DNA of 494 nucleotides from Escherichia coli (GTDB taxonomy: Bacteria; Pseudomonadota; Gammaproteobacteria; Enterobacterales; Enterobacteriaceae): assembly GCF_003334385.1 (NCBI RefSeq), contig NZ_QOWN01000174.1. One strand, 5' to 3'. A model generated the notes under the pieces. That model saw nothing but the letters and a program-made list of their open reading frames with translations, was not told the origin of the DNA and did not search any database. The position numbers and the translations under genes are program-made. Shown piece after piece: positions 1-494 of the stretch. The stretch's first letter is position 1. Each line of letters starts with the position of its first letter.

Positions 1-494
1 TTTGCAGGTGTACGATAAGACCAGGCGGCTTCGTAAAGCAGACGTCTCAGTTCGCTGTTTCCAACTTTTGTTATTCCCCTGGGACGAATGCTGTTTCCAC
101 TGGAATATTCCCCTGGAACCAGTCCCAGAAAAGCCATGAGTTGTTTGGGACTGGAAAATCGTGAAAAATCACCCAGTTCAGCAACCAGGGTTATTGCGGT
201 TAGCTGACCAACACCTTTAAGGGCCTGTAACTGGCAGACCAGATTGCACAGAGACCACTCAGGTAACAGGCGGGATATTTCCTGGTCGAGTTGAAGTATG
301 CGATCTTCAATCTGCTCCAGACTCTGACAATAGTGTTGAAAAGCAATCTGTTGAGATGGCTGACTAAATGATTGATTGGCTAACCAGGTTCGATGTTTGC
401 CGGTCCAGTGCTTCCCTGCATAACGTTTGTCTGTTCGCAATAGCATGCTCAGAATTCGCTGTCGGGCAACTCTGCTGTCTCGTTTAGCTGCTGC
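1..494 (-). CDS. IS110-family transposase (DEDD-type recombinase), internal fragment; N-terminus lies beyond position 494 and C-terminus beyond position 1
   Basis: Hand translation of the reverse complement starting at position 494 gives 164 sense codons with no stop (codons occupy 494 down to 3; positions 2-1 start the next codon). Family motifs recalled from memory are present: helix-hairpin-helix-like LKGVGQLTAITLVAELGDFSRF (approx 156-221), FLGLVPGEYSSGNSIRPRGITKVGNSELRRLLYEAAW (approx 21-131) with the conserved Ser-Gly (second Ser of YSSG, codon at 99-101), and a heptad-like linker SLEQIEDRILQLDQEISRLL (approx 261-320). All three plus-strand frames contain stops (for example frame 1 TAA at 16-18, frame 2 TGA at 137-139, frame 3 TGA at 162-164). 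No database search was run. Confidence 0.9.
1..494 (-). mobile_element. Internal portion of an IS110-family insertion sequence; element ends and insertion site not in window
   Basis: Inferred from the transposase CDS: IS110-family elements are small and consist mostly of the single recombinase gene. No element boundary, target site or flanking host sequence is visible, so the extent and intactness of the element cannot be assessed. Confidence 0.75.

Follow-up and report, generated by a model that had tools for sequence, protein, structure and literature searches.

The analysed sequence, referred to below as the window, is a stretch of 494 nt from Escherichia coli (assembly GCF_003334385.1, contig NZ_QOWN01000174.1). 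In reverse-complement translation the minus strand reads from base 494 through 164 codons without a stop; the other two minus-strand frames contain many stops, and the plus strand holds only unsupported open reading frames of at most 48 aa. The gene lies on the minus strand, which the original prediction did not name. The block described there as intact and in frame was recovered as the peptide FLGLVPGEYSSGNSIRPRGITKVGNSELRRLLYEAAW at exactly 131 to 21 of this strand, and the accompanying statement that neither stop nor frameshift interrupts the window is borne out by all 164 open codons. After mononucleotide shuffling of the window a fully open frame was obtained in 5 of 5000 shuffles. Since the frame is open, the coordinates are exact, and such frames are rare among shuffles, the flagged block is real and not a chance feature.

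In E. coli NCTC86, MS15046, and numerous further strains, chromosomal genes named "IS110-like element ISEc45 family transposase" show 100% identity to the window, and plasmid copies show 99.8%. The full transposase gene of the window-identical copies comprises 1134 nt and 377 codons, and the window (1–494, minus strand) is an internal fragment of this IS110-family DEDD/Ser recombinase gene which covers codons 139–302 and 2 nt of codon 303. The ISfinder ISEc45 protein, whose sequence was taken from the supplement/source data of Siddiquee et al. 2024 (PMC11187229), also has 377 aa and is identical to the full protein of the window-identical copies at 373 of 377 positions (98.9% aa), the four differences being I10V, R162H, T237I, and S253N, none of which falls within the flagged 37-residue block. 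The E. coli CFT073 copy encodes a protein equal to this reference and has about 96.7% nt identity to the window lineage, with which it shares the element ends, the IS66-family target, the length of 377 aa, and the identical 37-residue block; the two differ at about 3% of nucleotides, including two positions of the putative guide (CAUAUAG in the window lineage vs CACGUAG in the reference) and left-end position 4. By the ISfinder isoform convention two copies belong to the same insertion sequence (IS) if they are more than 95% identical in amino acids or more than 90% identical in nucleotides. With 98.9% aa and about 96.7% nt identity the window is, as judged from its sequence, an isoform of the catalogued insertion sequence ISEc45 of E. 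coli and related Enterobacteriaceae.

Read along the minus strand, the window begins with the end part of the first coiled-coil helix (435–494; DSSP on the AlphaFold2 model, helix 126–158), which lies between the RuvC and Tnp domains, and continues with a variable linker joining the coiled-coil helices (360–434, AlphaFold2 model) and with the second coiled-coil helix (258–359; DSSP on the model, helix 184–217), the domain scheme for this region being taken from PMC11208158 and PMC11187229. Then follows Pfam PF02371 (Transposase_20), covering three quarters of the Tnp domain from its N-terminus, at 18–230 (minus strand; window residues 89–159, E = 4e-24). Within it the flagged block F260-W296 at 21–131 carries the GL-x-P-x4-S-G motif and an I-T-K-x-G-N...R...L-x-E-A-A-W helix. 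A beta-hairpin of residues 265–279 is predicted at 72–116 (AlphaFold2 strands 265–270 and 273–279) with the Ser-Gly pair at its tip: codon AGT at 99–101 encodes Ser270, the predicted nucleophile, and codon GGA at 96–98 encodes Gly271, all on the minus strand.

The full protein of the window-identical copies matches PF02371 at residues 227–298 (E = 1.6e-23) and PF01548 (DEDD_Tnp_IS110) at residues 10–158 (E = 3.6e-15), and its score with the NCBIfam equivalog NF033542 "IS110 family RNA-guided transposase" is 279.9 bits, the cutoff being 140. The AlphaFold2 model, built from 92 sequences, has a mean pLDDT of 95.5, and in a Foldseek search with this model the top 11 matches were all chains of IS621 or ISCro4, aligned over the full length with E values of 1e-14 to 2e-12 and TM of 0.72–0.82. 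According to these profile and model comparisons the ISEc45 protein is an IS110-family DEDD/Ser (bridge) recombinase with the predicted three-domain fold of IS621 and ISCro4.

The original prediction had equated the Ser-Gly at 99–101 with the conserved serine of the Tnp domain. In phmmer alignment this pair lies without gaps across the block on residues 243-244 of PDB chain 8wt6_A (IS621), and since this chain has two residues more than the native protein, the aligned residues are native S241-G242. In the study of Hiraizumi et al. 2024 (PMC11208158) S241 of IS621 was characterized as the nucleophile, which becomes bound to DNA in a covalent 5'-phosphoserine intermediate, G242 as a conserved residue contacting D102 of the partner RuvC domain by a hydrogen bond, and mutation of S241 or of any DEDD residue abolished recombination. 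The IS110-family signature is given as GL-x-P-x4-S(t)-G (PMC11187229), and GLVPGEYSSG in the window fits it.

For the evaluation of conservation a MAFFT alignment of 115 sequences was used, which consisted of the window-identical full protein, ISfinder ISEc45, IS621, ISEc11, and 111 representatives (34–55% identical). The IS621 column S241 (S270 of ISEc45) holds S in 102/115 and T in 11/115 sequences, and G242 (G271) holds G in 104/115; the identification of the catalytic column was thus confirmed. The four acidic residues of the RuvC-like domain, which are encoded outside the window and were read from full-length copies 100% identical to it, occupy the IS621 DEDD columns as expected: D11 corresponds to D13 of ISEc45 (D in 108/115), E60 to E64 (E in 110/115), D102 to D102 (D in 111/115), and D105 to D105 (D in 115/115). 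Among the 111 representatives the motif residues were conserved as follows: G262 100%, L263 82%, P265 88%, S270 88% with a further 10% T, G271 90%, K281 78% (with R as alternative), G283 98%, N284 85%, R288 95%, L291 78%, and A295 86%. The family-typical pattern proposed for the block therefore stands for G-L-x-P...S-G...(K/R)-x-G-N...R...A, and its "L-Y" element is not typical of the subfamily, as Y292 is found in 1% of the subfamily sequences, where V is usual; IS621 and ISCro4 do have LY at this place.

The neighbouring Ser269 is nearly as conserved in the subfamily as Ser270 (89% vs 88%), which raises the question whether Ser269 could be the nucleophile or the Ser-Gly pair purely structural. 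Both readings are highly improbable, since the ungapped alignment sets S270-G271 on IS621 S241-G242 and S269 on E240, the only alternative tolerated in the S270 column is the nucleophile-capable T (11 sequences), the published family motif is x4-S/T-G (PMC11187229), and IS621 S241 itself was seen covalently linked to DNA and its mutation abolishes activity (PMC11208158). With Ser270 as the predicted nucleophile, the chemistry expected by homology is that Ser270, presented at the tip of the beta-hairpin, would attack the DNA backbone to give a transient 5'-phosphoserine link, that the DEDD pocket of the partner subunit (RuvC-like; D13, E64, D102, and D105) would hold Mg2+, and that Gly271 would contact the third acidic residue. 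From knowledge of the family ISEc45 would be excised as a circle, whose joined ends would create a promoter, and reinsertion of the circle would most likely proceed through site-specific recombination, guided by RNA, across a 2-nt core. Taken jointly, the best explanation, which is very probably correct, is that the window represents codons 139–302 of the ISEc45 recombinase, that the flagged block forms the central part of its C-terminal Tnp domain with Ser270 as predicted nucleophile, and that mobility would, by family analogy, be RNA-guided.

The nucleotide sequence of the catalytic block contains an imperfect direct repeat, in which GT(T/C)CCAGGGGAATA-N6/8-TGGAAACAGC occurs twice on the coding strand (window 54–63/90–99 and 72–85/106–119). 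The exact 10-mer copies lie 36 nt apart and in frame; one encodes "SGNS", which includes the catalytic Ser, and the other "VGNS". For the 14-mer the distance is 34 nt, and its copies are out of frame. The number of exact 10-mer repeats expected by chance is about 0.1, and since the N and S that follow Ser-Gly are not conserved in the family, the direct repeat is lineage-specific. A perfect 10-nt palindrome, GGAATATTCC, is located at 101–110 of the window, just upstream of the Ser codon.

The window sequence was found in 1279 of 5426 complete E. coli genomes, where the median number of places per genome was 1 and the largest 7. Between intact lineages, which are about 3% nt apart, dN/dS was 0.05–0.10 for the whole gene and 0.04–0.05 for the window codons. 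These sequence-based ratios of 0.05–0.10 show purifying selection on the ISEc45 protein. The remnant L006, which is 91% identical, is truncated, and of its changes 37 are synonymous, 34 are nonsynonymous, and 2 create stops. An open frame of 377 codons was present in 12 of 13 sampled full-length copies, and the 37-residue block was identical in all 13 sampled copies compared for it, including two defective ones. Two sequences that align to the 5' two-thirds of the gene only, H60 and H61, were considered as natural chimeras with another guide region and were rejected, being decayed and truncated pseudogenes.

It may be supposed that the source of the window is a defective ISEc45 copy, in which the block is intact and the gene or element is broken elsewhere by a nonsense change, a frameshift, truncation by another IS, or loss of the ends, making it immobile alone. 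Defective copies of this kind are real: L012 is 99.8% identical, carries one base different from the window that creates Q206*, and is truncated at its 3' end by the IS21-family element ISEc12, while L016 (pTW10598_141) is of full length with a frameshifted transposase gene; moreover, of the 1467 genomes with any match only 587 contained at least 80% of the element, which indicates that ISEc45 remnants are common. However, both full-length copies with a 100% window match that were examined (L001 and L002) are intact, with a complete gene of 377 codons free of stops and frameshifts, most sampled full-length copies keep the frame open, and the Q206* lesion of L012 falls within the window span and is absent from the window. 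An origin from a defective copy is accordingly considered unlikely. The view that this part of the gene is not decayed agrees with the open frame, the preserved block, and the low dN/dS between intact lineages, and the original prediction, which called its finding compatible with an active copy and no proof of one, was set at the right level, since defective copies exist (L012, L016, and L006). In summary, the window is not decayed as far as it extends, and its own copy may be intact and active.

The anatomy of the element outside the window was read from window-identical copies, and its boundaries were obtained by comparison of uninterrupted ISEc23 with occupied sites. The element is about 1.43–1.45 kb long (insert of 1433–1445 bp), with the ends ATGGTATGACC... 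and ...GGTCATAAG, subterminal inverted repeats of 10 bp (TATGACCTTT/AAAGGTCATA) situated 4 nt from each tip, and non-coding ends of very unequal length, about 57 nt for the 5' leader vs 244–255 nt for the 3' end. In ISEc23 the target reads ...GGAAAGAAAAA-CT-TTATGTTCTTTGG..., and the 2-nt core flanks the insert on both sides. The insertion site lies within the stretch of IS66-family tnpC that encodes the conserved G-(K/R)-K-N-(F/Y) block, and nearly every sampled copy sits at the same tnpC position in ISEc23-, ISEc22-, and ISEc43-type hosts and other IS66 relatives; in L010 the IS66 target sequence is visible at the right-end flank only. Thus, insertion of ISEc45 is site-specific for this conserved tnpC codon block.

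The junction of a circular form would read ...GGTCATAAG-AG-ATGGTATG..., and direct reading of the joined ends gives TTGACA-N17-TATGAC, in which the -10 element is weak (TATGAC, without the final T). This arrangement is a candidate junction promoter, and no comparable promoter was found in the linear element.

Several junctions deserve separate description. The clean 2-nt core model was rejected for L001 (NCTC86, 3500–3540 and 4960–4990; empty site L005 at about 385–415), where the insertion is in a diverged IS66 relative with TT in place of the CT core of ISEc23, so that the target core in gene orientation is AA and not AG, and where the right-end junction is 1 nt shorter than would be predicted from a clean exchange of the 2-nt core. 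In the comparison of the right-end junctions of L007, L009, and L014 with those of L002 and L003, sites whose target core is AA in gene orientation show AG (element/guide type) at the left-end junction and AA (target type) at the right-end junction, as would follow if the two junctions took over opposite strands of a mismatched core. An 11-bp deletion, CGATATAACGA in gene orientation, was located in L002 at about 3585 (MS15046; also in EcPF5 and H43), within the 3' non-coding end, immediately beyond the closing stem described below; it defines the 1433-bp variant, which is found at 6–8 places within single genomes. ISEc45 copies or remnants adjoin the iha siderophore receptor/adhesin gene (L001 5486–7573; L006 1–31) in IS-rich islands of two unrelated strains.

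Comparison with the structurally studied bridge recombinases IS621 and ISCro4 (PDB 8wt6-8wt9 and 9t56) shows a common domain order of RuvC-like DEDD, coiled coil, and Tnp, identical DEDD and Ser-Gly columns, the above structural similarity (TM 0.72–0.82), and a 2-nt core exchange. At the same time the proteins are only about 21–23% identical, and IS621 and ISCro4 have 326 aa, whereas ISEc45 has 377 aa with a longer inter-helix linker. The long non-coding end of ISEc45 is downstream of the gene and that of IS621 and ISCro4 upstream, the 10-bp subterminal inverted repeats are a feature of ISEc45 which IS621 and ISCro4 do not have, and the core in gene orientation is AG in ISEc45 vs CT in IS621.

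ISEc45 resembles ISEc11 and other seekRNA elements of IS1111 type (PMC11187229), with which it has in common the downstream non-coding region, subterminal inverted repeats, a length of about 1.43–1.44 kb, the GL-x-P-x4-S-G motif, and the same apparent guide order, the top-strand match being 5' of the bottom-strand match. The layout described for the IS1111 subgroup, namely subterminal inverted repeats of 7–17 bp and a long right (downstream) non-coding end (PMC11187229), is found in ISEc45 with its 10-bp repeats and its 3' end several times longer than the 5' leader. However, proteins of the IS1111 clade have 330–350 aa, and ISEc45, with 377 aa, is 15–24% identical to the core IS1111-clade proteins of the published matrix (PMC11187229), about as ISEc21 is. 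By its protein size and identity, therefore, ISEc45 does not belong to the IS1111 clade, although the layout is alike. The IS110-type element ISEc21 is similar to ISEc45 in that its target is a conserved coding block in the transposase gene of a different IS family, and in its size class of 345–385 aa; it differs in having an upstream non-coding region and in targeting the DDE codons of IS3-family genes, whereas ISEc45 has a downstream region and targets IS66-family tnpC.

The 3' non-coding region folds with z = -2.5 into two stem-loop modules enclosed by a 16-bp closing stem. Covariation over 7 distinct variants included 1 fully compensatory pair, 1 GU/GC change, and 1 broken pair; this broken closing-stem pair (G to A, alignment column 16) is present only in the frameshifted L016 (about 390). 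Differences of the non-coding end between lineages cluster in the first module. A permissive Rfam scan of the whole element gave no family. In a blind k-mer search of the non-coding end against target and donor the 6-7-mers were at chance level and only the 8-10-mer AUAAGAG(UUU) stood out; AUAAGAG lies in the loop of the second module, corresponds to the right end plus core, and is invariant.

A reversed guide order was reported for IS1111-type seekRNAs (PMC11187229), and the reading of the ISEc45 guides was modelled on it, the assignment being post hoc. Under this assignment the 5' side of the loop opens with six bases similar to the right target arm in reverse complement, and the 3' side opens with seven bases similar to the left target arm plus core, both similarities being suggestive. 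Per copy, 8–13 of 13 positions agree between loop segments and target arms (L014 13/13, the window lineage 10–11/13, and L017 8/13), in copies which share ancestry. The total fit of guides to their own sites was 107 vs a mean of 99.7 for guides shuffled among sites, and 1.7% of sampled permutations reached 107, a value to be read as post hoc and as drawn from copies that are not independent. According to these data a structured 3' non-coding RNA with loops similar both to the target arms and to the ends of the element itself is only suggested.

The simple rule of one guide for one site was rejected, because L013 (ST12468) and L017 (SF-166) share a site and have different guide variants. These two copies have identical 24-nt left and 22-nt right flanks and belong to different ISEc45 lineages, with 99.0% vs 96.7% identity to L002, CAUAUAG vs CACGUAG as guide, and G vs A at left-end position 4; either the common site was hit twice or the copies recombined. 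In L011 (CE0007a, about 570) a 4-nt deletion in the putative target guide changes CAUAUAG(AAAG) to CAUAAAG, and CAUAAAG is an exact match to the left flank and core at the ISEc23-type site of this copy.

These features can be joined into one reading, in which the 3' end would encode a two-guide bridge/seek RNA (the first 6 bases of the 5' loop side as reverse complement of the right arm and the first 7 bases of the 3' loop side as left arm plus core) tuned to the IS66 G-(K/R)-K-N-(F/Y) codons, and lineages with re-programmed guides (CACGUAG, CAUAUAG, and CAUAAAG) would track their IS66 relative. Since the guide of the window lineage is imperfect for every sampled site, it may be a mis-tuned variant, now spreading mainly by hitch-hiking inside IS66 elements. 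The whole of this reading is tentative, a possibility to which somewhat less than even weight is given.

It may also be supposed that the lineage no longer spreads by transposition of its own and is carried passively in IS66-family elements (ISEc23 and relatives), plasmids, and pathogenicity islands, under which the copy number of ISEc45 would be uninformative on activity. Such carriage would fit with the placement of all sampled copies inside an IS66-family tnpC, with the frequency of the IS66 target sequence, which was itself present in 4597 of the 5426 genomes at up to 42 places per genome, and with the putative guides of the window lineage, which matched no sampled site perfectly. Nevertheless, the same lineage occupies at least 3 different IS66 relatives (L001, L002/L003, and L013), and the strong purifying selection argues that the function of the ISEc45 protein has been maintained, so that a purely passive lineage is unlikely.

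The Ser-Gly motif, its catalytic role, and the mechanism of the family are already published for the family, and ISEc45 is already present in ISfinder and in NCBI annotation; nine papers name it, all of them resistance-genomics surveys, and no biochemical study of ISEc45 itself was found. Only mildly new are the natural guide/target variation among ISEc45 lineages and the specialisation on IS66 tnpC, which parallels the published case of ISEc21 and IS3. The main value of the present analysis consists in correct annotation of the window as a well-preserved piece of a catalogued IS. Beyond this, ISEc45 represents a natural case of an IS specialised on the transposase gene of another IS family (IS66), by which the target is disabled, and its lineages form a small natural guide/target series for testing the guide rules of IS110-type recombinases with a downstream RNA.
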